Sequence record: PP400777
Origin: Escherichia phage JM10
DNA: 64,000 bases
Strand: one strand, 5' to 3'
Below, piece by piece: positions 5,930-43,790 of this stretch (position 1 is its first letter; each line of letters begins with the position of its first letter). The position numbers and the translations under genes were made by a program. Under the pieces are notes generated by a model, which was given only the letters and a program-made list of their open reading frames with translations, searched no databases and was not told the DNA's origin.

Positions 5930-6607
5930 TTATCGCTGTTTTACACTTAACGGGTCAGGATTCTCAGGGACATCTTCAAGGCCAAGCGCATAACGCTGAG
6001 CATATTTTAACATCAAAATATCTTTAGCACAATCATGAATACTATCATGGGCAACGAATCCTTTTAGCGTACCCATCGGTAATGGACACATACTTAATCC
6101 TCGTGTCAACGAGTAAGCTTCGATTGCCGTACGAATATCGCGTTGAGCCCAGAATTTAACCGGTTCTAATTTATCAGTATCAATCTCTGGTTCAAGAACA
6201 CCTTCATCACGATAGAGGTCACGAATCAAATCGACCAATATTGGGAAGTCAAAGCTCATACCACGGCACCACATCTGTGATTTCCATTGGTCAACTTTAT
6301 TAGCTCGGCAATAGTCTAAAAAGATTTTAATGCCTTCAAGCGTAGTGACATCATCTTCAGACGGAGCCAGGTTTTTACGCGCTTCAGCCGATTGTTCTTT
6401 CCACCATTTCATAGTGGATTTAGCGAAAACTCGCTTCCCTTTCTGAGAAGCTAAATTAAATTTAATTCGCTTACCTCGTTGAACAAGTTCTTCAAATGAT
6501 TCAACAACTTCAGGGTCGGAATTATATGCAATAACCGCAAGGTCAATAACAGCCGCTTTTGATGTATTGCCGAATGTTTCAAAATCTATAATAACATCAG
6601 TGCTCAT
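5930..6607 (-). CDS. dexA: exonuclease A (DEDD-type 3'-5' exonuclease)
   Basis: 225 aa; N-terminal VIIDFETFG; T4 synteny next to dda. Confidence 0.8.
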   Translation of the reverse strand: MSTDVIIDFETFGNTSKAAVIDLAVIAYNSDPEVVESFEELVQRGKRIKFNLASQKGKRVFAKSTMKWWKEQSAEARKNLAPSEDDVTTLEGIKIFLDYCRANKVDQWKSQMWCRGMSFDFPILVDLIRDLYRDEGVLEPEIDTDKLEPVKFWAQRDIRTAIEAYSLTRGLSMCPLPMGTLKGFVAHDSIHDCAKDILMLKYAQRYALGLEDVPENPDPLSVKQR

Positions 6608-6616
6608 AATTTTCTC

Positions 6617-7930
6617 TCAAATAAAATGGACGTCAAACCGACCACGAGTTGTGCCGACATACAATAACTGTTTAGCTAATTCTGAATCGGCATAATGGAT
6701 ACACGGCGTATAAACAAAGGCCGTGTCAACAGACATACCCTGGGCCTTATGGAAGGTTGATACTGGTAGTGCCTTCACCTTAGTGAACATACGTTTAGCA
6801 TCCCAGAATTCGCTCCATGGAGCTTTACCACCTTTATTCCAGAATTTGTATGTTTCTGCGGTCTTAGCCAAAAACAAATTGAATTTATAAAGCTCTTCTT
6901 CAGAAGAAATAACCTTTATATCTTCGCGGATGTATTCTTCATCATCCCCGTATGTTTCTACTGTAAGATTCCAGTATCGTATCATATATTCGCCTGAAAC
7001 ACCGCGTGCTTTAACGAATGTAGACGTTTCTACAGCGTCTCGAATACGAACGAATTGCCCGTTATTGAAAAGCATTTCGGTCATATTTTTACCATCTAGC
7101 TTATATGTCTTAGTAAATGGCTCTTGTAGAACAATGACCTCGTCTTTAATAAATGGTTTTTCTGTTTCAAGAAGTTTTCGGCGAATAATTGAATTTAACT
7201 TGTCCACCGACTTATTTGTGAATGCCATCATTCGATTTTCGAAAAGGTCTTCAGGAGTTTTAACGATGTTAAAATAGTTCATCATATACGATTTAAGGTC
7301 TGTATATCCGTGAACACCGTGTCCATCAACTACTTTATCGTAAATCCATTTGCCATTACGAATATCAGTCGCAACATCAATAATTGGTGCATTGCTACGT
7401 TTAACTTCTGTAAGGTCGCATTGCACAAAGTCTTTGTGAGTGAAGAAAGGACTTAGATACGCAGTTGATTCGCCTGGGTCTACCGGACGAATCTGGCATC
7501 GGTCGCCGATTCCAATTACTGTACACCATTTAGGGATACTAGCTAACATTATTTTAAACAGAGAACGGTCGCACATTGACGCTTCATCAAATAACAGTAC
7601 ACGACACAAGGCTAAGTCGGGAACCTTTTTCTGTTCAAACAATACGTTTTCTTCGTATGTAGTTGGGTTGATTTTAAGAATGCTATGAATAGTCGATGCT
7701 TCTTGACCCGCAAGTTTGCTTAGAACCTTTTTAGCAGCATGTGTAGGGGCTGCTAAAATAATACCTGATTCTCCGGCAGAAATAAGAGCTTCAACGATGA
7801 ATCTAGTAAGGGTTGTTTTACCTGTACCAGCGGGCCCATTAATAGTTACGTGATGTTTCTTTTCTTTAATAGCGTTCATAACAACGTTGAAGGCGTTTTT
7901 CTGGCCTTCAGTCAAATCATCAAATGTCAT
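6617..7930 (-). CDS. dda: Dda DNA helicase (SF1)
   Basis: 437 aa; Walker A GPAGTGKTT; Walker B LLFDEASM. Confidence 0.9.
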   Translation of the reverse strand: MTFDDLTEGQKNAFNVVMNAIKEKKHHVTINGPAGTGKTTLTRFIVEALISAGESGIILAAPTHAAKKVLSKLAGQEASTIHSILKINPTTYEENVLFEQKKVPDLALCRVLLFDEASMCDRSLFKIMLASIPKWCTVIGIGDRCQIRPVDPGESTAYLSPFFTHKDFVQCDLTEVKRSNAPIIDVATDIRNGKWIYDKVVDGHGVHGYTDLKSYMMNYFNIVKTPEDLFENRMMAFTNKSVDKLNSIIRRKLLETEKPFIKDEVIVLQEPFTKTYKLDGKNMTEMLFNNGQFVRIRDAVETSTFVKARGVSGEYMIRYWNLTVETYGDDEEYIREDIKVISSEEELYKFNLFLAKTAETYKFWNKGGKAPWSEFWDAKRMFTKVKALPVSTFHKAQGMSVDTAFVYTPCIHYADSELAKQLLYVGTTRGRFDVHFI

Positions 7931-8238
7931 CGTAAAGTCCCTGCAATTGGAATACTAACAATACGGCCTGTGTCCAGAATTCGTTGATACAATCTTTGCG
8001 TCTCCGCATCTAGTTTAATGTGTTTCATTTCAAGCTTATTAAACCAGAACTTACGCGGAGTTTCGACCATTCTTAGAACTCCCATTTTTAAATCTGTTTT
8101 ATACTGCGTTTTCAAAGTATCGAAAACTTTATCTGCAATATCCTTTCTAAAAAATACTGCAGGACGATGCTCATCAAGTGGAACCGGGACAGTAAATCCT
8201 TCCATATCTCGATAAACTATTGCATATACATAAACCAT
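7927..8238 (-). CDS. hypothetical protein, 103 aa (dda.1 position)
   Basis: ORF track; start overlaps dda. Confidence 0.5.
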   Translation of the reverse strand: MVYVYAIVYRDMEGFTVPVPLDEHRPAVFFRKDIADKVFDTLKTQYKTDLKMGVLRMVETPRKFWFNKLEMKHIKLDAETQRLYQRILDTGRIVSIPIAGTLR

Positions 8239-8240
8239 AA

Positions 8241-8987
8241 TTAACCTTTAATCAGTTGGAATAATGATGCGCTAAGTGGTAAGCCACGTTTCAATTTTAA
8301 TTTACCAATGAAACCAATCTTTTCAAAACGTTGCAGACCTTGGATAACTTTATCATATGTATCGAAAAGCGATTCAGCGTCAGTTAATTTAGTTTTAGTT
8401 TTCCAGTCAGAGCCTTTAAGAAGAACGTTGAGTTTAGTAAGTTCATGGCCTTCTGCTTGATGTGAGCCATTAATGCGTGCTTTCAAAGCAACAATTCTAA
8501 GTTTAGATTCGTTAGATAAAGGTTGATTTTTCATCATGTTCGCCATATGCTTAACACGATTTTCACGTTTTGCTCGGATTTTTAAAATAGTACCATAAAC
8601 ATTTTTAATTTGGGCCCATTTCTTCTCGTCGAGATTAAGTTTCTCTACTTTACGGGCAGAAGGATTAGCGATACGTCTTGCAATGGCATCACGTTTCACA
8701 ATAAGTTCTTCTAATGTTAAATCAGAACGAGCCGTGTTATATTTTTTCTTAACTGGGATAACATTACCTTTAATGTAGCCTATATCGTTATTAAAACGTT
8801 CTAAGGATAATTTCTCACCTTCAACAGAGTTATTGAAAGATTCGCCTGAGTAAGCGCAGACCTTTTGATCAAGAATGTTTTTAAGGTAATTAAAGTCTAA
8901 GTTAAAATCCTTAGAGCGTCTCTTCGCAGAAGCTCTGGTGTGGTCAAGACGACGATTGATTTTGTTAATTTTATTATTTGATAACAT
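8241..8987 (-). CDS. srd: hypothetical basic protein, 248 aa (T4 srd position)
   Basis: Size and synteny only. Confidence 0.45.
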   Translation of the reverse strand: MLSNNKINKINRRLDHTRASAKRRSKDFNLDFNYLKNILDQKVCAYSGESFNNSVEGEKLSLERFNNDIGYIKGNVIPVKKKYNTARSDLTLEELIVKRDAIARRIANPSARKVEKLNLDEKKWAQIKNVYGTILKIRAKRENRVKHMANMMKNQPLSNESKLRIVALKARINGSHQAEGHELTKLNVLLKGSDWKTKTKLTDAESLFDTYDKVIQGLQRFEKIGFIGKLKLKRGLPLSASLFQLIKG

Positions 8988-9139
8988 AATATTTTCCTCT
9001 GTCTTACGGACGTTAGGTCATTTAGCTGATAAGCTTATAGTATCATGCCCTCAGGTAGTGTACACTCTTTTTTCATAAAATGCTTTAATTTTTTATGTGT
9101 TATAATGGTTCTGAGTTCCATCCGGTTATTCCAATTCAG

Positions 9140-11971: not shown

Positions 11972-12208
11972 TTAACCACTTACTGGTGTAGGGGTAAACA
12001 TTGCAGCGTTCTTAGTTTTCCAGTCAGCTGCATCAGAAACTACAGTAGAATATGCAGCCTTTTCAGAAGGAAAGGTCTGATAATGAGAATCTGCAATCCG
12101 ATGTTCGTTTGAATAAATTTCAAACGGTACAGAAACTTCCATACCTTTAACTTCTTTGCCTTCACCAGCCGGATGTGTAAAGGTTTTGATATTAACGTAA
12201 CCACCCAT
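11972..12208 (-). CDS. soc: small outer capsid protein Soc
   Basis: 78 aa; GYVNIKTF...HYQTFPSEKAAYSTV matches T4 Soc from memory. Confidence 0.85.
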   Translation of the reverse strand: MGGYVNIKTFTHPAGEGKEVKGMEVSVPFEIYSNEHRIADSHYQTFPSEKAAYSTVVSDAADWKTKNAAMFTPTPVSG

Positions 12209-12239
12209 AATTAACTCCTTTGTTGTTTAATTACAGGTG

Positions 12240-12247
12240 TATTTATA
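12240..12247 (-). promoter_or_regulatory. late promoter TATAAATA upstream of soc
   Basis: Plus tatttata; 32 nt upstream of soc ATG; SD AAGGAG. Confidence 0.7.
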
Positions 12248-12253
12248 ACTTAA

Positions 12254-12775
12254 TCAGTAACCATTATCCTGGCGTTCAAAGTTGTGTTGGTTTTTCAAGT
12301 AGTAAAGTTTAAAGATTTCTTCAGCGGAAAGACCCAGACCTTGGAACATATTCAGAACAAAGTGGAGGATATCAATCATTTCGAATTTAATTTCAAGCTG
12401 GTCTTCAGGAGACAGTTCATCGATACGACGATTTCGATATTCAGCATGTTGTGCTTTCCATGGCTTCCATACACTGCTGGCGGCTTTTTCACCATTGCTC
12501 ATACCACCAAGTGAAGTCAGCAGTTCACGGAATTCATCATCAATATAATCTTTCTGATTACGCAGCCAATCAACAACATCGCCAGCAGTGGCCAATTCAT
12601 CAGGATGTTTGTTATGTTCAGGCTTGTCATTTGCCAGACGAACCTGTAAAGATTTCTGCATATCAAGCATTACCTGCAGTGGGTCTTTATCTTCGTGAAT
12701 CAGAGCATTAAAATAAGCTTCTTCTGCTTTATCAACACCAGAAATAAGTTGGGAACATTCGTTAAAGTGTGCCAT
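12254..12775 (-). CDS. 56: dCTPase/dUTPase gp56 (MazG-like), start at MAHFNECS
   Basis: Synteny soc-56-61; size ~173 aa. Confidence 0.7.
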   Translation of the reverse strand: MAHFNECSQLISGVDKAEEAYFNALIHEDKDPLQVMLDMQKSLQVRLANDKPEHNKHPDELATAGDVVDWLRNQKDYIDDEFRELLTSLGGMSNGEKAASSVWKPWKAQHAEYRNRRIDELSPEDQLEIKFEMIDILHFVLNMFQGLGLSAEEIFKLYYLKNQHNFERQDNGY

Positions 12776-12864
12776 TATTTTTCCTTTCAATTCAGTATAA
12801 GAGAGTTAATTCTAACATTAATTTTATAAAGCGTAATAAATAATAAGGTAACTAAGGAGATATT

Positions 12865-13062
12865 ATGTTTAAACTTCCATCGTTAATCAACGCTATTAAA
12901 GGCAATAAAAAGAAAACTGCTATCGCTGCAATAGTTGTAGGTGGCATTATTTCATGGAACTTCGGGATTGCACCATTGTTAGTTGCCCATGGTGTTATGG
13001 TTCCTTCTGTTCCATTGGATACTGTAGTTGACCTAGCTTTTGCTGTTATAGGGCTGGTCTAA
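12865..13062 (+). CDS. small hydrophobic membrane protein, 65 aa, plus strand
   Basis: SD ctaaggag 7 nt before ATG; fills the only gap between 56 and 61; TM-like AIAAIVVGGIISWNFGIAPLLVAHGVMV. Confidence 0.55.
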   Translation: MFKLPSLINAIKGNKKKTAIAAIVVGGIISWNFGIAPLLVAHGVMVPSVPLDTVVDLAFAVIGLV

Positions 13063-14081
13063 ATTTTAGAATACTGAGATAATCTCATTTTAGCATGCAA
13101 CCCACTTGAAATATTCTGTTTCATATATTCTAAAATTTCTTGTGGTGTTGCATTTTCTTTCATTACCATATCATTCACATCCTTTGATCTCCATGGAGCT
13201 CGATCCCAGAACATGACACGTTCGCCCGCATCAACTAATCGCTTCATGCGAGCTATAGTATCTGGATGCCTAGGTTCATTATCCATTACCCATACCCGAC
13301 GTTCTTTAAATGGTACCACATCTAAATCTATTGAGCCGCCTGTAATAGCGATTGCATTGGGTATGAATAAACTATCAATAGGGCCTTCCATTACCCAGAC
13401 GTCCCCTTCCTTAACACGTTCAACACCATAAATTTTTGTTGCAGACTCAAACGCTTTAATAGTGATATATTTCTGAGGAGCATCTTTACGAAGTGCACGT
13501 CCTTGGAATGACTCGGCCTTCCCATCTTTATTAAAAATAGGAATCACTAAACGTGGTTCAGGAATCTCTTTCTTATATGTGCCAGGTTGAATCTTGTTGA
13601 CCAATTTAGGCCATTCTAATGTGAACCATAATCTGTTCCATGATTCTTTAGGAATACACCGAGACTTAACATATTTCACAATAGGATGCTCTTCAGGCAA
13701 CTTGTCTAGACGAGAACAAGACGGCAAAGAATTTATAGTCTTTTTCTCCGGTTCTGGTTTATGTTCAGGAACCTTTTCAATTTTTGGTTCCATTCTAGCT
13801 TTTTCTTTACGAACTTCCATTAGATATTCGCGATAAAGCTCTTCATCATACTCCTTTAAGTATCCGGAAATTGTATTGTGGTATTGACAGTTATAGCAAT
13901 GTACATTACCAGGAGTACCGCCATAATACCATCCGCGAGCTTTCATTGCATCTGTCTGGGAGTCGCCACAAACTGGACATCGAAATGTTAATTTAAATGT
14001 GCTTGAATTATTGATTTGTCTAAAACGAGGTAGGTGAGAAAACGCACGATAAGCAAATTCATTATCTATCCATTCAGCCAT
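13059..14081 (-). CDS. 61: DNA primase gp61
   Basis: 340 aa; zinc ribbon CPVCGD...CYNC; TOPRIM-like C-terminus. Confidence 0.9.
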   Translation of the reverse strand: MAEWIDNEFAYRAFSHLPRFRQINNSSTFKLTFRCPVCGDSQTDAMKARGWYYGGTPGNVHCYNCQYHNTISGYLKEYDEELYREYLMEVRKEKARMEPKIEKVPEHKPEPEKKTINSLPSCSRLDKLPEEHPIVKYVKSRCIPKESWNRLWFTLEWPKLVNKIQPGTYKKEIPEPRLVIPIFNKDGKAESFQGRALRKDAPQKYITIKAFESATKIYGVERVKEGDVWVMEGPIDSLFIPNAIAITGGSIDLDVVPFKERRVWVMDNEPRHPDTIARMKRLVDAGERVMFWDRAPWRSKDVNDMVMKENATPQEILEYMKQNISSGLHAKMRLSQYSKI

Positions 14082-20850: not shown

Positions 20851-21399
20851 TTAACGAGCCCATTTGATGATTTCTGTAATCAAATCATTACGTTCGCTTG
20901 CATTAAATCCTATAACTTTGTTAGCACCATCATGATTAAGTAATTGATACGTTTGGATTTTGTTATGAATTGCAAACTCTTCAAAATGTGAAATGACTGT
21001 ATTAAAACCGAATGAAGACAAAGTAATAAGATCGTCTTCAAAACTTTCAGTCATTTCGTTACGTGTTAAAATAATTGTGAACACATCATGGTTTTGGCAA
21101 AGACGAACATAATCCTGTTCATAAACGTCAAGAACCGAGTCCGCATCTTGTCGAATACGTCCATAAACCCAGTTACTAATATATCCACGGTCTAATAGAT
21201 AAATCTTAGTAGGGTCTAAATAATTCAACATCGTTTCGAAACAGCCAACTTCATTTCGAGACTTAACATCGAAACGTCCATCAACTGTTCGTTTAGGGAA
21301 ATCAATCTTTACATATCTTTCACTAATTTCCATTATGTCATTAATGAAAGTTGTTTTACCAGCATTATCCGGGCCATCTACTAAAATAATTTTAGCCAT
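20851..21399 (-). CDS. thymidylate-kinase-like P-loop nucleotide kinase
   Basis: 182 aa; P-loop ILVDGPDNAGKTT; DRY-like motif LDRGYISNWVYG. Confidence 0.55.
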   Translation of the reverse strand: MAKIILVDGPDNAGKTTFINDIMEISERYVKIDFPKRTVDGRFDVKSRNEVGCFETMLNYLDPTKIYLLDRGYISNWVYGRIRQDADSVLDVYEQDYVRLCQNHDVFTIILTRNEMTESFEDDLITLSSFGFNTVISHFEEFAIHNKIQTYQLLNHDGANKVIGFNASERNDLITEIIKWAR

Positions 21400-21400
21400 T

Positions 21401-22300
21401 TTATTCCTCGATTACGACATCTTCGTATTTAGGTATATTATACGGTGAAGAAATTAAAGCGTTAAAGTAGATGAACTCACCAAGACCTGGATGGAATACT
21501 TCTTCAGGATTTTCGAAATATTGAATCTTCGGACGTCCTTTAAGAATTTGATAGTACTCAGTTTTAGTTGGTTTAAAAATTCGAATCAACGCTTCTTCAG
21601 GATACTTATTTCTGTCGAAGCTATTATTTGGATCGGTTATATAAAGCGGTTGGCCTAATTGAATTGCACATTCAACCACTTGTTCAAAACGATAGCACGG
21701 GTCACTAATTCGAAATGGATGAAAAATACCATCTAGATGAATAGGAGCCAAATCACCTACAAGACGCTGCATGATGGAAGGACGTATAACTTTCTGCGTT
21801 ACGATAATCTTATTACCATCTGCACCTGCGTTAACCAGCACTTCTTTTTGACGTTCATTCAACACAGTAGTTTGAAGTGAACGATTAACCGACAACATAT
21901 CAGTTTTTAAGAATTCGTCAATATAAAAACGTGGTTTATTAGGGTCTGCAGTGATATTGAAATTGAATTCCACATCAAAAGCGCCGTCATATCCGGTGAT
22001 ATCTGTGATTAGAAAATCACAATCATAATAAGCAATTAATGAATCAACCACAAATTCATTTTCAGACCAGAAATATTTACGAGTGTTATACGCGTTATCT
22101 TTATACCATAATGGAACAAACTTAAATTCTGGGAAAAGACGTTCGCATTCTTTAATATCGGATGCATTACGTGGATATGTAATCACATCGCCTGGATTAG
22201 CACGGTGCAAATGAAGTTGGAAGTTGCCATCCTTAAGGATAGCATACTGTCCAGTTTCATAAGACCGCATACTCAAAATAGGTACGCGGAAAATAGCCAT
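21401..22300 (-). CDS. hypothetical protein, 299 aa, at the T4 beta-gt position; candidate sugar transferase (inference)
   Basis: No motif recognised by eye; translationally coupled between gene 42 and the Tmk-like gene. Confidence 0.5.
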   Translation of the reverse strand: MAIFRVPILSMRSYETGQYAILKDGNFQLHLHRANPGDVITYPRNASDIKECERLFPEFKFVPLWYKDNAYNTRKYFWSENEFVVDSLIAYYDCDFLITDITGYDGAFDVEFNFNITADPNKPRFYIDEFLKTDMLSVNRSLQTTVLNERQKEVLVNAGADGNKIIVTQKVIRPSIMQRLVGDLAPIHLDGIFHPFRISDPCYRFEQVVECAIQLGQPLYITDPNNSFDRNKYPEEALIRIFKPTKTEYYQILKGRPKIQYFENPEEVFHPGLGEFIYFNALISSPYNIPKYEDVVIEE

Positions 22301-23016
22301 TAGTCAAGGAATCCTTTAACATAATCAAAATCACGTTCAAACACATGGGCACTTACCATGGTATGAGTATAATCACCAACTTCTACACCACATTCGTTAG
22401 CGATATAATGAAGTAATTTTCCTTGGAGATAAAAATCCAACTGCATAACAACAGCACAGTTCTGAGAACGCATATGACAGTGGGTATAAAGCTTACCATC
22501 ACGAATATAATAAGTCACTGAGTCAGTACATGGATATTCAAGCGTTTCGTCTGAATCAAGCAAAGCCTGATCAGAACTTTCTAGAATTTGGAACACAACT
22601 CTTCGAGAGTTAGGCTTCTCTTTAAGTTCTTTTAGAAGAGTTGGTAATTGGGCCGCAATGCGAGGACCATAGAAAGTGTTGAAGTTCGCCGGCAAAACAT
22701 CTGATTTTGGTTTAGAAATAAATTTAGCGACATTAGGATATGCCTTAAACGCTTCTTCTGCGTTGGTACCACCAGAAATCATAAACTTCCAGAAGTCTTC
22801 GGCATATTCATAAGAGATGCGGTTAATACGTGGGTCGGTCATTTTGAATGATGATGGAGTGTCAACAACTACTGTCATAGACCCAATTTCATTACAACGT
22901 CCAATACGAGAATCAGTTACGAATTCCGGGTTTTCTAAAATTTCACGATTGACTGCTTTAAATGCGGTTTGAAAATCTGCGGCTTTGATATATTTCATTG
23001 TGTTATGTTTTCCCAT
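22300..23016 (-). CDS. 42: dCMP hydroxymethylase (thymidylate-synthase fold)
   Basis: 238 aa; PCTDSVTYYIRDGKLYTHCHMRSQNCAVVMQLDF...CGVEVGDYTHTMVSAHVF parallels TS PCH..FQFYV.DGKL.CQLYQRS.D; synteny. Confidence 0.75.
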   Translation of the reverse strand: MGKHNTMKYIKAADFQTAFKAVNREILENPEFVTDSRIGRCNEIGSMTVVVDTPSSFKMTDPRINRISYEYAEDFWKFMISGGTNAEEAFKAYPNVAKFISKPKSDVLPANFNTFYGPRIAAQLPTLLKELKEKPNSRRVVFQILESSDQALLDSDETLEYPCTDSVTYYIRDGKLYTHCHMRSQNCAVVMQLDFYLQGKLLHYIANECGVEVGDYTHTMVSAHVFERDFDYVKGFLD

Positions 23017-23058
23017 GTTTACCTCAATACAATTTATTATATACTCAATTCGTAAAGC

Positions 23059-23298
23059 TTATTTGAATTTCTTGACAATGTTGATATAACGTAAAGCTTC
23101 AGCATCGATACTTCCAAGAACACTATGAAGAAATGCATCAGCGTAGTATTCCAATTGAACAGGTTCTTTAATCACTTTAGCCGCTTTAGTTTCAAACAGG
23201 CCCATCAGGGCCTGTTTAAGAATTTGTTCATTAGTGTTCAGTTTCATAGTCAAAATCTCTTCATTAAGTTGGTGGTTAAAAGTTTTTCTAGAAATCAT
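23059..23298 (-). CDS. hypothetical protein, 79 aa
   Basis: ORF track. Confidence 0.45.
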   Translation of the reverse strand: MISRKTFNHQLNEEILTMKLNTNEQILKQALMGLFETKAAKVIKEPVQLEYYADAFLHSVLGSIDAEALRYINIVKKFK

Positions 23299-24455
23299 TC
23301 CGGGTACCTCAAAGCGTCATCAGAGTTAGTTATATCAATAATAGATATAGAGTTTTCTGCTAACCCGTTTTTAGATAATTGACGTTTATAATATCTTTCA
23401 CAATATGTACACGTCGTCCCGCAGATTTCATTAGCACAATCGAAATCTGGATGTCTGAACCACCTTTTTTCTAAAAAGCCATCTAACAAAGAGGTTTCAA
23501 TATTTACTGTATGTGAAAACTCAGTTTCGTTTTCAAGAGTGAAAATAGTCTCTAAAGGCTTCCACAGTTCTAACAAATTACCTTCAAACTTTTCAGAAGC
23601 GTATGCTTCAAGAACTTTCAAAATGTAGTCTGTACTACCTGTACGTCCTGAAACTTTGAATTGAGTGATACCAATATCATTATAAAGTTTCAAATCTTGA
23701 GGACGAACAAAACGAGTTCTCAACCAGTTAAATGGGTCTGTATCACGAGCTTTAATACAGTGCTGCATAGGATATCCGTTTAAGGATTTAGCATCATCAG
23801 CTGTAACATCAGTACTATGGAAAATATAGCAAGAGTCACGATAGCTACAATGTGTTGTATACCCTTTACCAGCATTAGAACAGAACTCATTTACAAGAAC
23901 TTCAAATATTATATTGTTCTTATTGCAAAACTCTGCTGCACGCTTCAGGAAAGAAACTGAACGGTTCTTATGAATTCCACAGCAGACCTTTTTGATATTA
24001 TATTGGTCATGCAAGTATTTGATTTGAGTTACAGCATCGACATGTAGAATTGTTGAAACTTCAATCTCAATGTCTTTATTGACTTCACGAACAATTTCCA
24101 TAACAACAGGGTTAGCGATAGTAATACGCCATACGCCTATTGACCAAAGATACTGAACATAATCCTGAATAGCTTTCTTCTTCCACTCAACTAGTTCTCT
24201 TTTTGAACCAGGATTTATCGTGTTGAGTGTATAGTTAAAGCAAATACCTAATTCGTTACAACGTTTAACGTAATCTTCTAACATCTTTTTGTCAACGTCA
24301 GGAAGCCTAAAATCAGGTCTGGCTGCTACAAAAGCCATTTCTCTTGTAGAGCCGTATACTTCGTTTATCAAGCTATTAGGATAAGTTTTATTGAGCTCTA
24401 CGATTTTATCAAGAAGAGCTAAATCAAAATTCGTTCCGATTTTAAAAGTATTCAT
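23295..24455 (-). CDS. hypothetical Cys-rich protein, 386 aa; candidate modification enzyme (inference)
   Basis: C-terminal cluster DFDCANEICGTTCTYCERYY (contains CxxxCxxC); inside the sugar operon. Confidence 0.5.
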   Translation of the reverse strand: MNTFKIGTNFDLALLDKIVELNKTYPNSLINEVYGSTREMAFVAARPDFRLPDVDKKMLEDYVKRCNELGICFNYTLNTINPGSKRELVEWKKKAIQDYVQYLWSIGVWRITIANPVVMEIVREVNKDIEIEVSTILHVDAVTQIKYLHDQYNIKKVCCGIHKNRSVSFLKRAAEFCNKNNIIFEVLVNEFCSNAGKGYTTHCSYRDSCYIFHSTDVTADDAKSLNGYPMQHCIKARDTDPFNWLRTRFVRPQDLKLYNDIGITQFKVSGRTGSTDYILKVLEAYASEKFEGNLLELWKPLETIFTLENETEFSHTVNIETSLLDGFLEKRWFRHPDFDCANEICGTTCTYCERYYKRQLSKNGLAENSISIIDITNSDDALRYPE

Positions 24456-24511
24456 TTTTTTGCATCTCGCGTTAATTGATGCGATGGTTTTTGCAGGTCT
24501 TACTTAAATTA

Positions 24512-24898
24512 TTATAGATTAGGTTTATATGATTTAAATGTTTCGAATTCGCCTTTATTCATAAGAGCTTTGAATTCGTCAGGACGCATAGCTTTGTCGT
24601 CGATAATCCAATCATATACTGGTTTATGTGTTAGCAAATTATGGTACTTCAAGCCAATGTTTGCCAAGTTCTGAATCAGACTTGGGAGAATGTCAATTGC
24701 TATACGTCCAGGACCTACTGACTTCATACCGCGAGCAGTGTAAAGCGTTATTGTATGCCCTGCATCATACAGAGCATTAATGGCAGACACCATTTCGACG
24801 TCTGGTTTGAAGTTCACGTAATCACGATTGTTATTCCACTCTGTTATACAATCATCGACATCAAAACAAAGATTAAGCATGTTTTCTACACGGTGCAT
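24512..24898 (-). CDS. HAD-superfamily phosphatase (sugar-phosphate phosphatase-like)
   Basis: Motif I LCFDVDDCIT near N-terminus; start probably at an internal Met overlapping the upstream stop. Confidence 0.6.
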   Translation of the reverse strand: MHRVENMLNLCFDVDDCITEWNNNRDYVNFKPDVEMVSAINALYDAGHTITLYTARGMKSVGPGRIAIDILPSLIQNLANIGLKYHNLLTHKPVYDWIIDDKAMRPDEFKALMNKGEFETFKSYKPNL

Positions 24899-26583
24899 TA
24901 GATTCGTTCCCATTGATGAGTGATATCGCCACCGATTGGACGATAGGAAACACCAGTTTCTTTATCAGTTAGTACCCATTTACCAGGATTTTTTGTAATC
25001 AGAGTAGCCGTTACAGGTTCTGCTACGTCATAACTAATAGAGCCGTCCTGAAGTACACGGCCCATGTTACGTAATTGCTTAGTCAGAAGTTCCATACCTT
25101 TATAATATGCGGCTACCGCTTTAAGTGGATTATTCTTGAAATAACCACCTAATGCAATCCAGATAATTGCCACTGCCAAATGATGATACTCGTTAAACGA
25201 ACTCATCTTTCCATATTTGTAAACTAATGGATTGATGTTAATAGTCACATTACAAGTTGTTTCATCAATAGTAAACTGTCCCCAGGTCGGATTAGCATTG
25301 AATTCATCATAACCTGAAACAGCATAAAGCACTTTAGCTTCATCATACAATTTTGGCCCGTAAATCTTGGTTTCGCCAAAATATCCACGAGGGTCGATAA
25401 ACTTGACTTCGCCGTTATCAGTAATCATAGTATTACTGAAGTTCGGGTCACCGTGAATAACAGAGTACTGCCCCTGAGAACGGTTATGATAACGAATAAG
25501 GTGTTCTAAAGCTTGTTTCAGCATTGGCTTCAGACGTCCAATCTTAGTGTAGTTCACATGTGTGATTTTACCAAATGAATCAATCAATGGTTGAATGCTT
25601 TCACAACGATCAATAACTTTCGTATAGAATTCTTTAGTGAAATCACGACGAACAGTTTCAGGACTTACAAAATAAGTGTCTGTGCTGAATTTCAGTGCAT
25701 CTAAAATTGCATCAACAATTTGTGGACGAGCAAGACTTGATTTGGATTTAATATATTCAAATGCCGGCTTACCTTTAATGCGTTCCATTTCAAAGTTATT
25801 TTCATTAACAGAAACTAACTGAGGAACTGAATCTGATTTCACTTTAAGATACCATGAAATCTCATCTTTCTGAAGAGCTCGACCTTGTTCAGTTAATGCG
25901 AATTTAGTTACAGTTTCTTCACCAATTTCAACTGCATTAAAACTACGATTAAGTTCACGAACTTCATGAGCTTTTTCAAGTTTAGGCATATCACCTAAAT
26001 CAATTATATTCATAAGCTCTGATTTATTGAATGCGCCGCTGTAAAGGAATTCTACAAAATCACGTCCTTTGCAGTATTCATGAATTTCCTCATCGGTAGA
26101 ACCCATATAGAATTCCCAGTCTTTGAACTGATAAATTCCTACAACATTACCACCTGTTGAACCTACGTTAGTGATATTTTCACCGTCGAAATTATAGCGA
26201 CATTCGTCACCCTTAACATAGATTGCGTTGACATTCCAAGACCATGAACCAAAATCAGGAATAATATCGCACCAGTTAACAATTACGTTATGGCCATCTA
26301 AATCTTTGTGTAATTTAGCAAGAGCATAAGCAGATCCGTATGCTTCATCAACTGTACGAATAGTCACATTGAACCCTTCTTGCTCACAATAAGCTCGAAC
26401 AGTTTCAGCAAATTTTGAATGAACTACTACAATAATTTCATCTGCGCCAAGGTCAGAATAAATTGTATACAAATTGCTCAGAATAGTGTCTTGTTTATAG
26501 TTAACAAGCACCTTAGGAATATGATGCGTTATTGGATACAAACGAGTTGCCAGTCCAGCACCAAGAATAACAGCTTTTTTCAT
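24898..26583 (-). CDS. bifunctional sugar-1-phosphate nucleotidyltransferase (N-terminal) / protein-kinase-like sugar kinase (C-terminal)
   Basis: 561 aa; N-terminus MKKAVILGAGLATRLYPIT (RmlA-like G-x-G-T-R-L); C-terminal HGDPNFSN (HGDxxxxN) and FIDPRG (APH/choline-kinase family). Confidence 0.7.
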   Translation of the reverse strand: MKKAVILGAGLATRLYPITHHIPKVLVNYKQDTILSNLYTIYSDLGADEIIVVVHSKFAETVRAYCEQEGFNVTIRTVDEAYGSAYALAKLHKDLDGHNVIVNWCDIIPDFGSWSWNVNAIYVKGDECRYNFDGENITNVGSTGGNVVGIYQFKDWEFYMGSTDEEIHEYCKGRDFVEFLYSGAFNKSELMNIIDLGDMPKLEKAHEVRELNRSFNAVEIGEETVTKFALTEQGRALQKDEISWYLKVKSDSVPQLVSVNENNFEMERIKGKPAFEYIKSKSSLARPQIVDAILDALKFSTDTYFVSPETVRRDFTKEFYTKVIDRCESIQPLIDSFGKITHVNYTKIGRLKPMLKQALEHLIRYHNRSQGQYSVIHGDPNFSNTMITDNGEVKFIDPRGYFGETKIYGPKLYDEAKVLYAVSGYDEFNANPTWGQFTIDETTCNVTININPLVYKYGKMSSFNEYHHLAVAIIWIALGGYFKNNPLKAVAAYYKGMELLTKQLRNMGRVLQDGSISYDVAEPVTATLITKNPGKWVLTDKETGVSYRPIGGDITHQWERI

Positions 26584-26624
26584 GTTGTGGTCCTCATTGG
26601 TAAGTAGGAGTATTGTACACTATT

Positions 26625-26768
26625 CTAGTTAAAGCATTCATACTTCGCTTGTAGTCCAATCATAATCCATCCGATTATAAGAGTCGGAACCATTACTGGA
26701 GCCGTTAAGCTCCAGTAGATAGTCATGACAAGCATCAATAGTAAAAGTCCTATTGTTATTGCTTTCAT
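26625..26768 (-). CDS. small membrane protein, 47 aa
   Basis: Hand translation MKAITIGLLLLMLVMTIYWSLTAPVMVPTLIIGWIMIGLQAKYECFN; ATGA start/stop overlap with the SIS gene; SD GAGG. Confidence 0.45.
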   Translation of the reverse strand: MKAITIGLLLLMLVMTIYWSLTAPVMVPTLIIGWIMIGLQAKYECFN

Positions 26769-27400
26769 TGCTCGCCTCGTAACATGGCACCTAGTGCACC
26801 GCCTGGATGGAACTTAAGGAAGTCATTAGAGGTAAATCCACGTTCAGACGAAAGGTTGATAGCAAACGTATCGATAAGCGCTAACAACAATGTAGTGGAC
26901 ATAGTCGGAGCCAGAGAATTCTCATCAACCTCTACTGCGATGCCTGTACAGAACGTATAATCAAAAAGAGCTTCGTATTCTTGTGGAATGTCAGGGTTAC
27001 AATGTAACAGAATCTGTTTAACCTGAGGACGAATCATACGAAGATGTTTAGCAACACCTATCATTTCTTCAGTCTTACCAGAACGACTGATGTGAACTAA
27101 TACATCATTAGGTGCAATAAATCCTGCGTCACCATGAGAATAATGCCCGGTGTTCAAATACATGCTAGGAATACCGAGTGAAGCAAAAGTCTCGGAAGCT
27201 TTAGTTGCGATATTAGCATTCTTACCAACACCTGTAATAATTACTCGGCTTTCATAATTACTAAGTCCCGGGCGTCGAAGAGTTTCTAGAATAGCATTAT
27301 AACGAGCAGGGTTTTGACTAATTACTTTGGCCATAGCGGCCAAAGAAGAAGCTTGTTTTATGATTGCGTCAATAGCGATAGTAATAGGAGTAGTTTTCAT
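26765..27400 (-). CDS. SIS-domain sugar-phosphate isomerase (arabinose-5-phosphate isomerase KdsD/GutQ-like, no CBS domains)
   Basis: 211 aa; VIITGVGKNANIA, SRSGKTEE, HPGGALG. Confidence 0.7.
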   Translation of the reverse strand: MKTTPITIAIDAIIKQASSLAAMAKVISQNPARYNAILETLRRPGLSNYESRVIITGVGKNANIATKASETFASLGIPSMYLNTGHYSHGDAGFIAPNDVLVHISRSGKTEEMIGVAKHLRMIRPQVKQILLHCNPDIPQEYEALFDYTFCTGIAVEVDENSLAPTMSTTLLLALIDTFAINLSSERGFTSNDFLKFHPGGALGAMLRGEQ

Positions 27401-40983: not shown

Positions 40984-41454
40984 TTAATCATGTTTCCACA
41001 CCCCATCAGTATTTGACCAAAGTCGCTGATTATCTGATCCTCGCCACAGCTTTTTAGTCGGAAGATTTTTCTCATACTTCCCATCAATAATAACATCAAC
41101 ATATTTAAGCATTTCTAGTTGTTTAATATCTTCAAACTTATATCCTGTCCACAACCAAATGCTTTTATTTGGATAAAGATTTTTAATAGTTTGAACCACA
41201 GAGTGAATCACATCTCTGTTATCAGGATAGAGAGGGTCACCTCCGGTTATAGTCAATCCTTCTATATAATCATTATTCAAACATTCAATTAATTGTTCTA
41301 GTGTTTCACCAGTGAATGGAATACCATTTCTAGCATTCCATGTTGATTTATTATAACACCCTTCGCATTTATGCAAACAACCTGTGACGAAAAGAACGAC
41401 CCTGCAACCAGGGCCATTCACAAAATCGCAAGGATAAAATCTATCATAATTCAT
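40984..41454 (-). CDS. nrdG: anaerobic ribonucleotide reductase activating protein NrdG (radical SAM)
   Basis: 156 aa; CDFVNGPGCRVVLFVTGCLHKCEGCYN. Confidence 0.9.
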   Translation of the reverse strand: MNYDRFYPCDFVNGPGCRVVLFVTGCLHKCEGCYNKSTWNARNGIPFTGETLEQLIECLNNDYIEGLTITGGDPLYPDNRDVIHSVVQTIKNLYPNKSIWLWTGYKFEDIKQLEMLKYVDVIIDGKYEKNLPTKKLWRGSDNQRLWSNTDGVWKHD

Positions 41455-42756
41455 TGGTGTTTAACCCTATGCATGATTTCTTTATTTTTACCAAGATTAA
41501 ATCCGCGTTCGTTCGGATTTCCCAAATAACCGCATGTTCTTCTTATGGTGTTCATCTTTTTAGGATCACTTTCTCCACAAACTGAACAAACAAATCCGTT
41601 TTCAGTAGGAGTCATTTCATGGGTACTTCCACATGTAAAACATTTATCTACTGGCATATTAACACCAAAATAATCTAAATGTTGTGCAGCATAATCCCAG
41701 ACAGCCTCAAGTCCCTTTAAATTGTTTTTCATATCTGGAAGTTCAACATAAGAAATGTGACCACCTGTCGCAATGAAATGATATGGCGCTTCACGAGAAA
41801 TCTTTTCAAACGGAGTAATATTTTCTTCTACTGAAACATGGAAACTGTTAGTGTACCAGCCTTTATCGGTGACATCCTTTACACTTCCATATTTTTCTGT
41901 ATCAAGTTTACAGAAGCGATAACAAAGGTTTTCAGCAGGAGTAGAATATAAACTAAAAGCAAATCCAGTTCTTTCAGACCACTGTTTAAGATGAGCATTC
42001 ATTTTAGTTAAAATTTCTTGTCCAATATCACGACCGACAAGAATATTCAATTCGTGAATACCGATGTATCCCAAAGACACTGAACTTCTACCGTTTTTAA
42101 ATAACTCAATTATGTCGTCATCAGGTTTAAGACGAACCCCGAATGCACCTTCTTGGTAAAGAATAGGAGCTACAGTTGCTTTAACACCCTTTAAAGAACT
42201 AATTCTACACATCAAGGCTTCAAAACACAGATCCATTCGTTCATTAAATAGCTCAACAAATTTCTGTTCATTGAACTGTGTTCCAATATAAGAATCTAAC
42301 GCAATACGAGGAAGATTCAATGTTACAACACCAAGATTATTACGTCCGTCAAGAATTTCATTTCCAGTTGAATCTTTCCATACACTCAAGAAACTACGAC
42401 AGCCCATTGGAGAAACTGGAACTGAAGAACCAGTAATAGCTTTATTATTCTTAGCTGAAATAATATCAGGATACATCCTTTTGCTTGCGCACTCTAAAGC
42501 AAGTTGCTTAATGTCGTAATTCGGATCGTCTTTATAAAGATTAACGCCTTCTTCAACGAACATAACAAGCTTAGGGAAAATAGGAGTTATCCCATCACGT
42601 CCAAGACCTTTAATACGATTTTTCAGAATTGCTTTCTGAATCATTCGTTCGGTCCAGTCAGTTCCCGTACCAAATGTAATTGTTACAAAAGGAGTCTGTC
42701 CGTTTGAACTGAAAAGTGTATTTACTTCATCATTATATTCAGCATGAGTCGCAAAT
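41451..42756 (-). CDS. nrdD: anaerobic ribonucleotide reductase NrdD, exon 2 (5' boundary approximate)
   Basis: C-terminal zinc ribbon CFTCGSTHE...CSVCG and glycyl-radical region; ends KNKEIMHRVKHQ; upstream exon separated by about 1 kb. Confidence 0.8.
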
Positions 42757-43527
42757 TCATGCCCGTTTATATGAAACAACAAAATTTGGATAGTCCATAG
42801 ATATGCAACGTTCTTTTATAGTGCTAGGATGAAAATTTAGCGCTTTAGCTGCTTCTATATAAGACGTATACTTAATACCGTCAACAACCACATATTCAGG
42901 AACTTTATGAATAGTAGTCTTAATACTCAAAACAAGAGGATGAGTTTCGACTTCACTTTCAGTGCAATTTAAATATTCCGCTGCTTTTTTAAAACTTCTA
43001 AAAGTTTTATTTTTAAGCTTTATCGATACTTGTTTTTTACTTTTTCGACTATTGATATTATTTTGCACATGTTCCTTAGATCTTCCGTTTTTAGCATAAT
43101 ATTCAGCTACAGAAGATTTTATATTGTTTTTATGAGATTCGGATAACACTTTACCCTTATGAGCATCTCTTAATTTTTGAATATGTTCTTCAGTATCCGG
43201 ATGCTTATAAAACTTTTTACCGCCTATGGATTTATTTAAACATTTTTTGCTATAAAAATATTTACGTATGACCTCTTCTTCATGTTTTAATGCATCTTTA
43301 TAACTATCAAATGTTTTTAAAATTATCCATTTAGTAGGTGTATCAGTTTTTAAGCGTTCATTTATATACTTAGATGACGTTGTGTAAGTTTTCCAGTTTG
43401 TGGGCTTGTTTTTAATTGTTCTAAATTTTTTATAACCGATATAAATGTCGCCATTAGAAAACTTAACTAAGTATGTAAATGCGTCTTTATCTTTTATTTT
43501 AGTACAACGTCTTTTTATCCATTTCAT
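42757..43527 (-). CDS. intron-encoded GIY-YIG homing endonuclease (I-TevII-like)
   Basis: 256 aa; DAFTYLVKFSNGDIYIGYKK (GIY-YIG); NUMOD3-like AHKGKVLSESHKNNI; inside the nrdD intron. Confidence 0.75.
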   Translation of the reverse strand: MKWIKRRCTKIKDKDAFTYLVKFSNGDIYIGYKKFRTIKNKPTNWKTYTTSSKYINERLKTDTPTKWIILKTFDSYKDALKHEEEVIRKYFYSKKCLNKSIGGKKFYKHPDTEEHIQKLRDAHKGKVLSESHKNNIKSSVAEYYAKNGRSKEHVQNNINSRKSKKQVSIKLKNKTFRSFKKAAEYLNCTESEVETHPLVLSIKTTIHKVPEYVVVDGIKYTSYIEAAKALNFHPSTIKERCISMDYPNFVVSYKRA

Positions 43528-43790
43528 TGTTTCACCTCGTATTCATAAGATAATCTTATTTATACAAGATGACTGCTGCATGTCGCCATGCAGATTAGAC
43601 TATATCTTCATCTTTCGATGCCGGCCGTTTCGAATAGCATTAGCTTCTATTCTACACCGCTACATTCATCACGGTTAGTCGTTAGGCATTTAGTTCAAAA
43701 GAACATTTAGCACGGGATTGTCTACTAGAGAGGTTCCCCGTTTAGACCGGTTTTACATGAGCCTGAATTAAATTAACTCATACGCCTGGA
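42757..43790 (-). mobile_element. group I self-splicing intron interrupting nrdD (boundaries approximate)
   Basis: NrdD reading frame broken between 42782 and 43768; intron RNA contains CUAAACGGGGAACCUCUCUAGUAGACAAUCCCGUGCUAAAU, recalled as T4 nrdD (sunY) intron core. Confidence 0.75.

Follow-up and report, generated by a model that had tools for sequence, protein, structure and literature searches.

Gene content of the locus

A block of nine minus-strand ORFs lying between uvsX and gene 43 was identified in Escherichia phage JM10 (PP400777), from which a stretch of 64,000 nucleotides (the window) was analyzed (Table 1). Neighboring ORFs overlap by 1-16 nt or are otherwise separated by gaps of no more than 56 nt, and a search for minus-strand terminator-like sites inside the block found none. 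An initial annotation, made from the letters alone, had described nine tightly coupled genes at this location. All nine ORFs, both flanks, the tight spacing and every motif quoted from the translations were recovered.

About 150 phage genomes (Mosigvirus) carry the block at 98% identity from end to end and, because of this conservation, it is not a chance feature. The window as a whole belongs to Mosigvirus and is 96-98% identical to RB69 at the nucleotide level. In tblastn searches, RB69p045-p055 matched the window collinearly and one-to-one with 94-100% amino acid identity, in the same order, on the same strand and with the same flanks. In the window, the counterparts of gp46:47 and gp52:53 are each one unbroken ORF, whereas gp46:47 is annotated as two ORFs and gp52:53 is split in the RB69 record; the latter split was put down to a sequencing error by Lee et al. 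(PMC13326640). Relative to RB69, extra homing-endonuclease genes are present elsewhere in the window.

Table 1. Genes of the JM10 cluster, its flanks and the separately located dCTPase
Feature	Position	Strand	Description
gp56-type dCTPase	12257..12775	-	outside the nine-ORF interval; 97% identity to RB69p028; Pfam dUTPase_2
uvsX	20751-19579		flank of the nine-ORF block
Thymidylate-kinase-like P-loop kinase; RB69 gp45 ortholog	20851..21399	-	182 aa
GT-B glycosyltransferase; RB69 gp46:47 ortholog	21401..22300	-	299 aa
5-Hydroxy-dCMP synthase, TS fold, flavin/O2-dependent; RB69 gp48 ortholog	22300..23016	-	238 aa; Thymidylat_synt 2e-15
Helical protein; RB69 gp49 ortholog	23059..23298	-	79 aa; fills the U32-adjacent slot held by chorismate mutase in relatives
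Peptidase_U32-family protein, putative Fe-S protein; RB69 gp50 ortholog	23295..24455	-	386 aa; 13 Cys; Pfam PF01136 7e-11 (above cutoff)
HAD-type phosphatase; RB69 gp51, HY126 AfhF ortholog	24512..24913	-	133 aa
Arabinose-5-P 1-kinase (C-terminal) and UDP-arabinofuranose pyrophosphorylase (N-terminal); RB69 gp52:53, HY126 AfhE ortholog	24898..26583	-	561 aa
Hydrophobic peptide; RB69 gp54 ortholog	26625..26768	-	47 aa; 94% to RB69p054
D-Arabinose-5-phosphate isomerase, predicted (SIS domain); RB69 gp55 ortholog	26765..27400	-	211 aa
Gene 43 (DNA polymerase)	30152-27441		flank of the nine-ORF block

Genes of the sugar branch

The genes of a UDP-arabinose route, encoding an arabinose-5-phosphate (A5P) isomerase, a kinase/nucleotidyltransferase and a HAD phosphatase, are all present by domain and family matches. 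The 211-aa SIS protein matches Pfam SIS (1e-9), the NCBIfam families KpsF/GutQ (9e-32) and KdsD (4e-30), the PHROG family 'arabinose 5-phosphate isomerase' (3e-116) and the PDB entries 3etn (1e-24) and 2xhz (2e-18), and shows 97.6% amino acid identity to RB69p055. The role of the RB69 isomerase is a predicted one (PMC13326640). The 561-aa fusion protein carries an NTP_transferase match (8e-10) at residues 3-99 and weak kinase-fold matches at residues 344-409, and is similar to the cytidylyltransferase of PDB 1jyk (2e-5). The 133-aa HAD protein is near-identical to PDB 9IQW (8e-88), matches the NCBIfam capsule-biosynthesis HAD phosphatase (4e-13) and is 99% identical to RB69p051. The start codon of its gene may lie at 24898, as in the RB69 annotation.

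Kinase and nucleotidyltransferase activities have been demonstrated for AfhE of HY126 (He et al., Nat Chem Biol 2026, cited in PMC13326640). AfhF of HY126 converts arabinose-1,5-bisphosphate to arabinose-1-phosphate, and the two enzymes together make UDP-arabinose (both as cited in PMC13326640). In JM10, the SIS enzyme is predicted to convert ribulose-5-phosphate to A5P, the C-terminal kinase domain of the fusion protein would phosphorylate C1 (demonstrated for AfhE), the HAD phosphatase would then take off the 5-phosphate (demonstrated for AfhF) and the N-terminal nucleotidyltransferase domain would form UDP-arabinofuranose (demonstrated for AfhE). The roles that the initial annotation had guessed for these three proteins agree with the family matches and with the published pathway (PMC13326640), but its sequence of steps, with dephosphorylation before C1 phosphorylation, was reversed. 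In the published order, the kinase makes arabinose-1,5-bisphosphate from A5P, the HAD enzyme removes the 5-phosphate and uridylylation follows (He et al. 2026, as cited in PMC13326640).

The 47-aa ORF has a T4 homolog between genes 42 and imm (57% identity) and, because of this, is by its sequence a conserved T-even small ORF that is not specific to the cassette. Its PHROG match is a family of unknown function, and the peptide probably lies outside the arabinose pathway.

Genes of the base branch

The 238-aa TS-fold protein is about 97% identical to PDB 9IQC/9IR2/9IQU (3e-160) and 98.7% identical to RB69p048, and shares 26% identity with T4 gp42. Alignment with E. coli ThyA and T4 gp42 places E160, C163, N186 and D194 at ThyA positions L143, C146, D169 and N177, respectively. 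The 5hodCMP-synthase signature (L143E, D169N, N177D and the catalytic Cys, in ThyA numbering) is present in full, whereas T4 gp42 has Asp at the D169 position. Judged by these residues, the enzyme is a 5hodCMP synthase and not a dCMP hydroxymethylase, and its earlier naming as gp42 is replaced. The RB69 ortholog, gp48, makes 5hodC that incorporates 18O from 18O2 (PMC13326640).

The gp56-type dCTPase, which is listed among the pathway genes in Table 1 of PMC13326640, is required for complete cytosine replacement. A dNMP kinase gene is also located elsewhere, outside the nine-ORF interval. The dCTPase would supply dCMP to the TS-fold enzyme, which with flavin and O2 would convert it to 5-hydroxy-dCMP, a reaction that both RB69 gp48 and its homolog in HY126 have been shown to catalyze. 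Phosphorylation to 5hodCTP would then fall to the phage dNMP kinase together with host kinases, and the polymerase would insert 5hodCTP instead of dCTP. The 182-aa kinase matches the PHROG thymidylate kinase family (2e-45) and, weakly, an NCBIfam dTMP kinase, and is 99.5% identical to RB69p045; every T4-like relative examined has its gene along with the cassette. JM10 also encodes an anaerobic ribonucleotide reductase.

Arabinosyl transfer

Domain searches of the 299-aa protein against Pfam and NCBIfam returned no family match. Its AF2 model (pLDDT 94.8) has a GT-B fold, and a Foldseek search of the PDB retrieved MshA 3c4q (5e-6), 6kih and the HY126 glycosyltransferase 9ir0 (8e-5). On the basis of this model, the protein is predicted to be the first (base-proximal) arabinosyltransferase, which would add arabinose to the 5-OH. 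The gene for the second arabinosyltransferase (RB69 gp3) is located just beyond the left edge of the window, and its product would add the second arabinose. DNA modified in this way withstands restriction and CRISPR nucleases. Related transferases of phage DLP3 use UDP-Araf as donor in vitro, and Lee et al. saw no activity of individual transferases on 5hoC DNA (PMC13326640).

Assignment of the cluster

On account of the nucleotide identity to RB69, the interval is very probably the Mosigvirus arabinosyl-5-hydroxycytosine (ara-5hoC) DNA hypermodification cluster, gene-for-gene orthologous to RB69 gp45-gp55. The closest known systems are this RB69 cluster and the homologous Afh genes of HY126. 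The JM10 hydroxylase and phosphatase are near-identical to the structures 9IQC and 9IQW; JM10 differs from RB69 in being a separate isolate.

The cluster is already known and not new. A UDP-arabinose pathway was already proposed in 2018 for this module, sited between the genes for the polymerase and UvsX (PMC6024577), and the RB69-type pathway was worked out in 2025-26 (Mahler 2025 and He 2026, both via Lee et al.; Lee 2026, PMC13326640). The chemistry and enzymology of RB69 gp45-gp55 have been published (Lee et al., NAR 2026, PMC13326640). In RB69 DNA, 5-O-arabinosyl- and di-arabinosyl-2'-deoxycytidine replace dC, and the linkage determined by NMR and MS is an ether from 5-hydroxycytosine (PMC13326640). 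The modifications 5-ara-dC and 5-ara-ara-dC were independently confirmed in phage NP, a Mosigvirus (PMC13390438).

Measured against this work, the central idea of the initial annotation, that phage-made activated arabinose is placed on a modified cytosine, was right (RB69 orthology; PMC13326640). The acceptor that it named, hmC, gives way to 5-hydroxycytosine, whose C5 carries the sugar through a direct ether bond. Neither is the pathway complete and self-contained in the interval: the RB69 gp3-type transferase, the dCTPase and the dNMP kinase are all encoded outside it. The analysis is a re-derivation from raw sequence of a published pathway, and its value lies in correct annotation of the base as arabinosyl-5-hydroxycytosine and not hmC. 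Correct annotation bears on forecasts of the restriction, CRISPR and type IV defences that the phage evades or triggers, and is also relevant to phage therapy and sequencing work.

Comparison with the T4 system and related phages

The T4 genes for hmC glucosylation encode the gp42 dCMP hydroxymethylase, alpha-gt, beta-gt, the gp56 dCTPase and the gp1 dNMP kinase. The two systems share a common plan, in which dCTP is destroyed, a TS-fold enzyme encoded in the same slot modifies dCMP, and the product is incorporated and then glycosylated. T4 employs folate-dependent hydroxymethylation and glucose from host UDP-glucose, whereas the JM10 cluster would employ flavin- and O2-dependent hydroxylation and arabinofuranose from a phage-made UDP-sugar. 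The 299-aa transferase, used as a tblastn query against the T4 uvsX-gene 43 locus, which holds beta-gt, gave no match. RB69 is without the alpha-gt and beta-gt genes (Thomas et al. 2018, PMC6024577).

A T4-style pathway, in which a gp42 hydroxymethylase provides hmC, the hydroxymethyl group receives arabinose (ara-hmC) and A5P is dephosphorylated and then phosphorylated at C1, would agree with the position of the TS-fold gene, with the name dCMP hydroxymethylase used in many GenBank records and with the report of ara-hmC for RB69 in 2018 (PMC6024577). It is nevertheless highly improbable. The ara-hmC assignment has since been described as erroneous (PMC13390438), and is already refuted for RB69; the ether linkage and the 18O in the gp48 product (PMC13326640), the Asn at ThyA D169, the low identity to T4 gp42 and the published action of the kinase before the phosphatase (cited in PMC13326640) all argue against it. 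Even less credible is that the sugar genes serve the host envelope (Kdo, capsule or LPS precursors) as auxiliary metabolic genes, have nothing to do with DNA modification and are located near nucleotide genes by chance, as their best families (KdsD/GutQ/KpsF, 'capsule biosynthesis phosphatase' and GlmU/MurU-like nucleotidyltransferases) and the corresponding names used by GenBank annotators might suggest, since the sugar genes, hydroxylase and GT-B transferase occur together in at least 11 phage genera and also in distant viral contigs, arabinose is present on the DNA (PMC13326640, PMC6024577, PMC13390438), and UDP-arabinose is both the product of AfhE/AfhF and, as UDP-Araf, the donor of the DLP3 transferases (see above).

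The ara-5hoC cassette has relatives in the Acinetobacter phages DLP3 and Maestro and in Dhakavirus JS98, which have in common with JM10 the TS-fold hydroxylase, the GT299-type transferase, the nucleotidyltransferase/kinase fusion, the HAD phosphatase and the Tmk-like kinase. These three phages are without the U32 gene and without the slot for chorismate mutase or the 79-aa protein, and JS98 gave no match to the SIS isomerase either. DLP3, which encodes additional transferases, forms tri-arabinosyl-5hoC (PMC13326640).

The U32 protein

The two orphan proteins of the block had been proposed, one or both, as sugar transferases. This stands for the 299-aa protein, by the GT-B fold of its model, but not for the 386-aa protein, which is a Peptidase_U32 protein, and a putative Fe-S protein, by its Pfam match and by the top PDB match of its AF2 model (pLDDT 92.9), the U32 protein 5d88. 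Ten Cys are invariant among 51 homologs; four of them (C192, C203, C209 and C233) lie in the U32-motif region and six elsewhere.

Comparison with RlhA by hhalign gave a probability of 83% (E=9e-6, 206 columns) and paired E190/C203/C209 with E161/C169/C176 of RlhA. In a mafft alignment, C192/C203/C209 are paired with 4Fe-4S ligands 1, 3 and 4 of the U32 motif; the register is ambiguous between the two alignments, and the spacing departs from the family motif (C-X10-C-X5-C-X23-C in the phage protein versus the recurrent C-X6-C-X15-C-X3/4-C). RlhA, in which C169/C176 are essential, is a U32 protein that makes 5-hydroxycytidine (ho5C2501) without O2, using prephenate. The phage protein resembles it in having candidate counterparts of the functionally important E161/C169/C176 and a C-terminal Cys cluster, and differs in forming a distinct subfamily of about 360-390 aa without DUF3656. 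Other E. coli U32 proteins are paired with O2-dependent enzymes, namely TrhP (prephenate) with TrhO (O2), and UbiU/UbiV with UbiI/H/F. Similarly, the phage U32 gene shares its cassette with the gene of an O2-dependent enzyme yielding a product of the same kind, and in related phages it is linked to the gene of an enzyme that forms prephenate. The substrates established for U32 proteins are RNA or a quinone and not a deoxynucleotide, and direct in vitro activity of RlhA, TrhP and UbiU/V had not been demonstrated as of PMC10990095.

A Pfam-validated chorismate mutase gene adjoins the U32 gene in 51 phage records. Among 34 distant viral loci, which contain U32, transferase and sugar genes without a nearby cytosine-hydroxylase-type TS homolog, a chorismate mutase lies beside U32 in 11, four of these being DAHP-synthase-chorismate mutase fusions. 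The JM10 window contains no chorismate mutase.

The two enzymes are distributed in three classes. Both are present in T4-like phages of Enterobacterales and Shewanella; the TS enzyme only is found in Acinetobacter and Rhizobium phages, none of those examined having a U32 gene, and also in Dhakavirus; U32 only is found in the 34 loci, which are low-GC and metagenomic. Dhakavirus, an E. coli phage with the TS enzyme only, breaks a simple aerobe/anaerobe split.

These comparisons tentatively suggest, at somewhat less than even chances, that the 386-aa protein may be an O2-independent, prephenate-dependent pyrimidine C5 hydroxylase that provides an anaerobic back-up route to 5-hydroxycytosine. A phage that, like JM10, removes dCTP from the pool and encodes an anaerobic ribonucleotide reductase would need an O2-free source of 5hoC to replicate in anoxic hosts, because the known hydroxylase needs O2. 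The U32 route would stand in for the O2/flavin TS-fold enzyme in oxygen-free hosts, for example in the gut. In relatives, the phage chorismate mutase, sometimes fused to DAHP synthase, would provide the oxygen donor, and Mosigviruses would use host prephenate. No statement of this idea was found in the searchable literature, in which He et al. 2026 and Mahler et al. 2025 were covered as relayed by Lee et al. If it is true, DNA precursors would join RNA and quinones as targets of the prephenate-dependent U32 chemistry, and the phage enzyme could offer a tractable in vitro substrate, something still missing from the field in 2024 (PMC10990095).

The 79-aa neighbor

The 79-aa ORF was considered as an AroQ (CM_2) chorismate mutase and rejected, as it has no CM_2 domain and its hhalign comparison with the phage chorismate mutase alignment gave a probability of 0.2%. 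Searches of Pfam and NCBIfam, CM_2 included, returned no match to it with cutoffs relaxed to E=10 or E=1. Homologs of the 79-aa protein adjoin a true chorismate mutase in Yersinia phage TG1 and Serratia phage 92A1.

Organization and identity of the cassette

Nine minus-strand open reading frames (ORFs) are located at 20851-27400 between uvsX and gene 43, as described in the initial annotation, and every motif quoted there was found in the translations. The same domains were returned by family scans, namely a SIS/KdsD-GutQ-type isomerase, an NTP-transferase with a C-terminal kinase-like region, a HAD "capsule biosynthesis" phosphatase, a thymidylate-synthase (TS) fold and a weak Tmk-like P-loop. 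The gene junctions are overlaps or gaps of at most 56 nt. No minus-strand terminator-like site was detected inside the block by a promoter and terminator scan, which is informative solely in this respect, as its counts were not above those for shuffled sequence.

The cassette block occurs at full length and 98% identity in about 150 phage genomes. RB69 shows 96-98% nucleotide identity with the window, which is of a Mosigvirus, and RB69p045-p055 are collinear one-to-one orthologs of the nine ORFs (94-100% amino-acid identity). The 299-aa and 561-aa proteins are encoded by one ORF each in the window and by two each in the RB69 record (p046/p047 and p052/p053, respectively), splits that have been put down to sequencing errors (Lee et al. 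2026, PMC13326640). The cassette is a published system and is not novel; the reasoning first applied to it was largely sound, with an outdated base assignment.

Coordinates of features in the window and in the compared phage loci and viral metagenome contigs (L-numbers)
Feature	Location	Coordinates	Strand	Remarks
227-aa ORF	window	1803-2486	-	three NUMOD3 motifs (Pfam 9e-12), GIY-YIG-like N-terminus
dCTPase gp56	window	12257-12775	-	outside the nine-ORF interval
uvsX	window	20751-19579	-	flank of cassette
47-aa hydrophobic ORF	window	26625-26768	-	between SIS and NT/kinase genes
Gene 43	window	30152-27441	-	flank of cassette
NrdG	window	40984-41454
Split nrdD with homing-endonuclease gene	window	41451-44313 (41451-42782, 42757-43527, 43768-44313)	-
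114-aa "chorismate mutase domain" protein	L002 (Serratia phage LC53)	5160-5504
166-aa ORF	L007 (phage JS98)	2854-3354		isomerase slot
DAHP-synthase-family + C-terminal CM fusions	L047; L049; L051; L048	8399-9430; 7290-8354; 8323-9384; 3-968		both Pfam domains above cutoff
U32 region	L015 (61-kb viral contig)	6028-9000 and 12073-13179		U32 between GT299-like (overlaps U32 start) and TAGT-family genes
Radical-SAM/SPASM gene close to U32	L016; L017; L012; L010	4980-6011; 4972-6000; 12160-13185; 1-249		distant phage contigs

Base modification and sugar route

Arabinose on RB69 DNA was found by Thomas et al. 2018 (PMC6024577). In RB69 DNA, 5-hydroxycytosine (5hoC) bearing one or two arabinoses takes the place of cytosine, and the sugar is joined to C5 by a direct ether link, as established by MS and NMR; the TS homolog gp48 is a flavin-carrying enzyme that produces 5-hydroxy-dCMP with oxygen from 18O2 (Lee et al. 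2026, PMC13326640). A second Mosigvirus was independently confirmed to contain 5-ara-dC and 5-ara-ara-dC, and the earlier hmC assignment was termed erroneous (PMC13390438).

The 238-aa TS-fold protein of the window shows about 97% identity to PDB 9IQC/9IR2/9IQU (3e-160). Alignment with E. coli ThyA and T4 gp42 places E160, C163, N186 and D194 at the positions of ThyA L143, C146, D169 and N177, respectively; at the D169 position, Asp is retained in T4 gp42. This residue set is the 5hodCMP synthase signature given by Lee et al. (PMC13326640). The central proposal of the initial annotation, that a phage-made activated arabinose is moved onto a modified cytosine, holds, but the base acted on is 5hoC instead of hmC, given the published RB69 chemistry and the signature in the window enzyme.

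According to He et al. 2026, as cited in PMC13326640, the phage HY126 NT/kinase fusion AfhE (equivalent to gp52:53) is bifunctional: it first adds a phosphate to C1 of arabinose-5-P; the 5-phosphate is then taken off by the HAD enzyme AfhF (equivalent to gp51), and the N-terminal domain of AfhE subsequently forms UDP-arabinofuranose. The phosphatase had been placed before the kinase; in this route the order is reversed. The HAD protein of the window is near-identical to PDB 9IQW (8e-88). The 299-aa protein gave no match in a sequence search of the PDB, and its predicted model (pLDDT 94.8) adopts a GT-B fold with matches including MshA, sucrose-phosphate synthase and a "phage HY126 glycosyltransferase with UDP". 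The proteins gp46:47 and gp3 have been proposed as the first and second arabinosyltransferases, respectively (PMC13326640). Contrary to what had been suggested, the interval does not hold the entire pathway, since the dCTPase gp56 is encoded elsewhere in the window and gp3 is past its left edge; the first nucleotide of the window aligns with RB69 position 3674, just beyond gp3.

The U32 protein gp50

The 386-aa protein, described earlier as Cys-rich and as a candidate transferase, is a member of the Peptidase_U32 family (7e-11) with a U32 TIM-barrel fold instead of a glycosyltransferase fold. No match was found in the PDB by sequence search, and its AF2 model (pLDDT 92.9) matches 5d88, the sole solved U32 protein. 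Ten cysteines are invariant in 51 U32 homologs (down to 48% identity): C158, C177, C192, C203, C209, C233 and the C-terminal C340-X4-C345-X3-C349-X2-C352.

All characterised U32 proteins have been implicated in O2-independent hydroxylation dependent on Fe-S clusters and prephenate (PMC5727448, PMC6599085, PMC10990095, PMC6747719). RlhA forms 5-hydroxycytidine at C2501 of 23S rRNA (PMC5727448), TrhP forms ho5U34 and has the O2-dependent partner TrhO (PMC6599085), and the oxygen donor of UbiU/UbiV is prephenate (PMC10990095; PMC6747719). Profile comparison of gp50 with RlhA gave E=9e-6 over 206 columns; UbiU and TrhP are weaker matches. In this comparison, the invariant E190/C203/C209 of gp50 (SCYIFHS) align with E161/C169/C176 of RlhA (QCYISHA). 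C169 and C176 of RlhA are essential, as is its C-terminal Cys cluster, and the E161A variant leaves only a trace of product (PMC5727448). The ligand assignment in gp50 is plausible but not settled, because a mafft alignment gives another register.

The most economical reading, offered tentatively and conditional at each step, is that gp50 might be an O2-independent, prephenate-dependent C5 hydroxylase through which 5hoC could be formed anaerobically. Besides the dCTPase, genes for NrdG and NrdD (anaerobic ribonucleotide reductase) are present in the window, which suggests that the phage is equipped for replication without O2 while excluding dC; yet the known hydroxylase requires O2, and this gives a physiological logic to an O2-independent gp50 route. 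As an alternative, gp50 could be a sugar or base reductase, the label of Lee et al., whose sole description of it, based on fold matches, is "sugar or heterocycle reductase" (PMC13326640). Another alternative is hydroxylation of host or phage RNA.

Papers that cite He et al. 2026 and Mahler et al. 2025, two studies that may already address gp50, contained nothing on the U32 gene. Per-gene essentiality of the cassette is not reported in a Tn-seq preprint on phages LC53 and Bas46. The U32/chorismate mutase (CM) module is a testable lead, and it is what lifts the result above plain rediscovery.

Distribution of U32 and chorismate mutase

A Pfam-validated CM_2 chorismate mutase adjoins U32 in 51 phage records of about 12 genera. 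These two genes have moved together in Shewanella phage Thanatos-2, where their placement with respect to the TS gene is different. Mosigviruses, including that of the window, are without CM and keep only the 79-aa non-CM protein.

U32 was detected in 221 phage records, and the host genera listed are all Enterobacterales or Shewanella. Phage records for Acinetobacter (57) and Rhizobium (22) also contain the TS hydroxylase homolog; U32 was not seen among these, and the published DLP3 cluster is likewise without U32 (PMC13326640). The correlation with host is one-sided, because U32 was not found in the E. coli phage JS98 (Dhakavirus). Phages with and without U32 make products of the same kind, which speaks against an additional chemical step and favours a role for U32 that is redundant or conditional. 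Among the cassette proteins compared across genera, U32 ranks first or near first in conservation (79-87% identity vs 44-72% for most neighbours).

The JS98 locus keeps the NT/kinase, HAD, kinase, TS and transferase genes, and no match to the SIS isomerase, U32 or the small ORF/CM was found in it. An unrelated ORF occupies the isomerase slot, and JS98 may use host KdsD/GutQ for arabinose-5-P.

A profile scan of viral contigs yielded 49 U32 loci, 15 T4-like and 34 distant. The TS hydroxylase is present in all 15 T4-like loci. The distant proteins show 34-55% identity, many are on contigs of 150-295 kb, and those sampled have low GC. Within ±10 kb of distant U32 genes were found a transferase like the 299-aa protein (GT299-like; 18/34), an AfhE-like NT/kinase (16/34), a SIS isomerase (9/34), a chorismate mutase (11/34, four of these fused to a DAHP-synthase domain) and a TS-fold gene (1/34). 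This last gene, on L038, was rejected as a hydroxylase, being a canonical ThyA (L143/D169/N177). The genes are usually arranged as GT-SIS-NT/kinase-(DAHPS-CM)-U32, or with GT overlapping U32, and seven more metagenome contexts agree with these loci. The DAHPS-CM fusion genes adjoin U32 and follow the GT299-like, SIS and NT/kinase genes; they look like a phage-borne route towards prephenate.

A stand-alone DAHP_synth_1-family gene directly follows U32 on L011. On L015, the GT299-like gene is on one side of U32 and a DNA glycosyltransferase of the TAGT family (TET-associated) on the other, with a dUTPase/dCTP-deaminase and a UDP-galactopyranose mutase nearby; a TS-fold or Tet gene was not seen on this contig, which may carry a different glycosylated hydroxy-pyrimidine system. 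The radical-SAM/SPASM gene is just upstream of the GT299-like/U32 pair on L016 and L017.

Small open reading frames

In T4 (L019, about 6231), a counterpart with 57% identity to the 47-aa ORF is located between genes 42 and imm; the 47-aa ORF is therefore a conserved unannotated T-even small ORF outside the arabinose cassette. The 79-aa ORF was considered as a diverged chorismate mutase and rejected: it has no family match, its hhalign probability is 0.2%, and in Yersinia phage TG1 and Serratia phage 92A1 a small protein of this type has a true CM as its neighbour. The N-terminus of the 114-aa LC53 protein, MRRINHTMNELVIK, resembles MNRINHNLNERLVK, the N-terminus of the 79-aa family member in phage 92A1 (blastp E=0.002), and the LC53 protein looks like a fusion or deletion linking the start of the small ORF to CM.

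Anaerobic reductase region and homing endonucleases

The nrdD gene of the window consists of an N-terminal part of 181 aa (Pfam NRDD positions 1-141) and a C-terminal part of 443 aa (positions 145-562), separated by a GIY-YIG/NUMOD1 homing-endonuclease gene. This split bears on the anaerobic argument for the JM10 isolate. Shigella phage SHSML-52-1 has the same nrdD annotation. At least 80% of the nrdD segment is covered in 67 records, and a single nrdD is annotated in several others among the matches listed. The 227-aa ORF, which probably encodes a Seg-type homing endonuclease, is within a segment of about 820 bp beside gene 39 that has no RB69 counterpart at that position.
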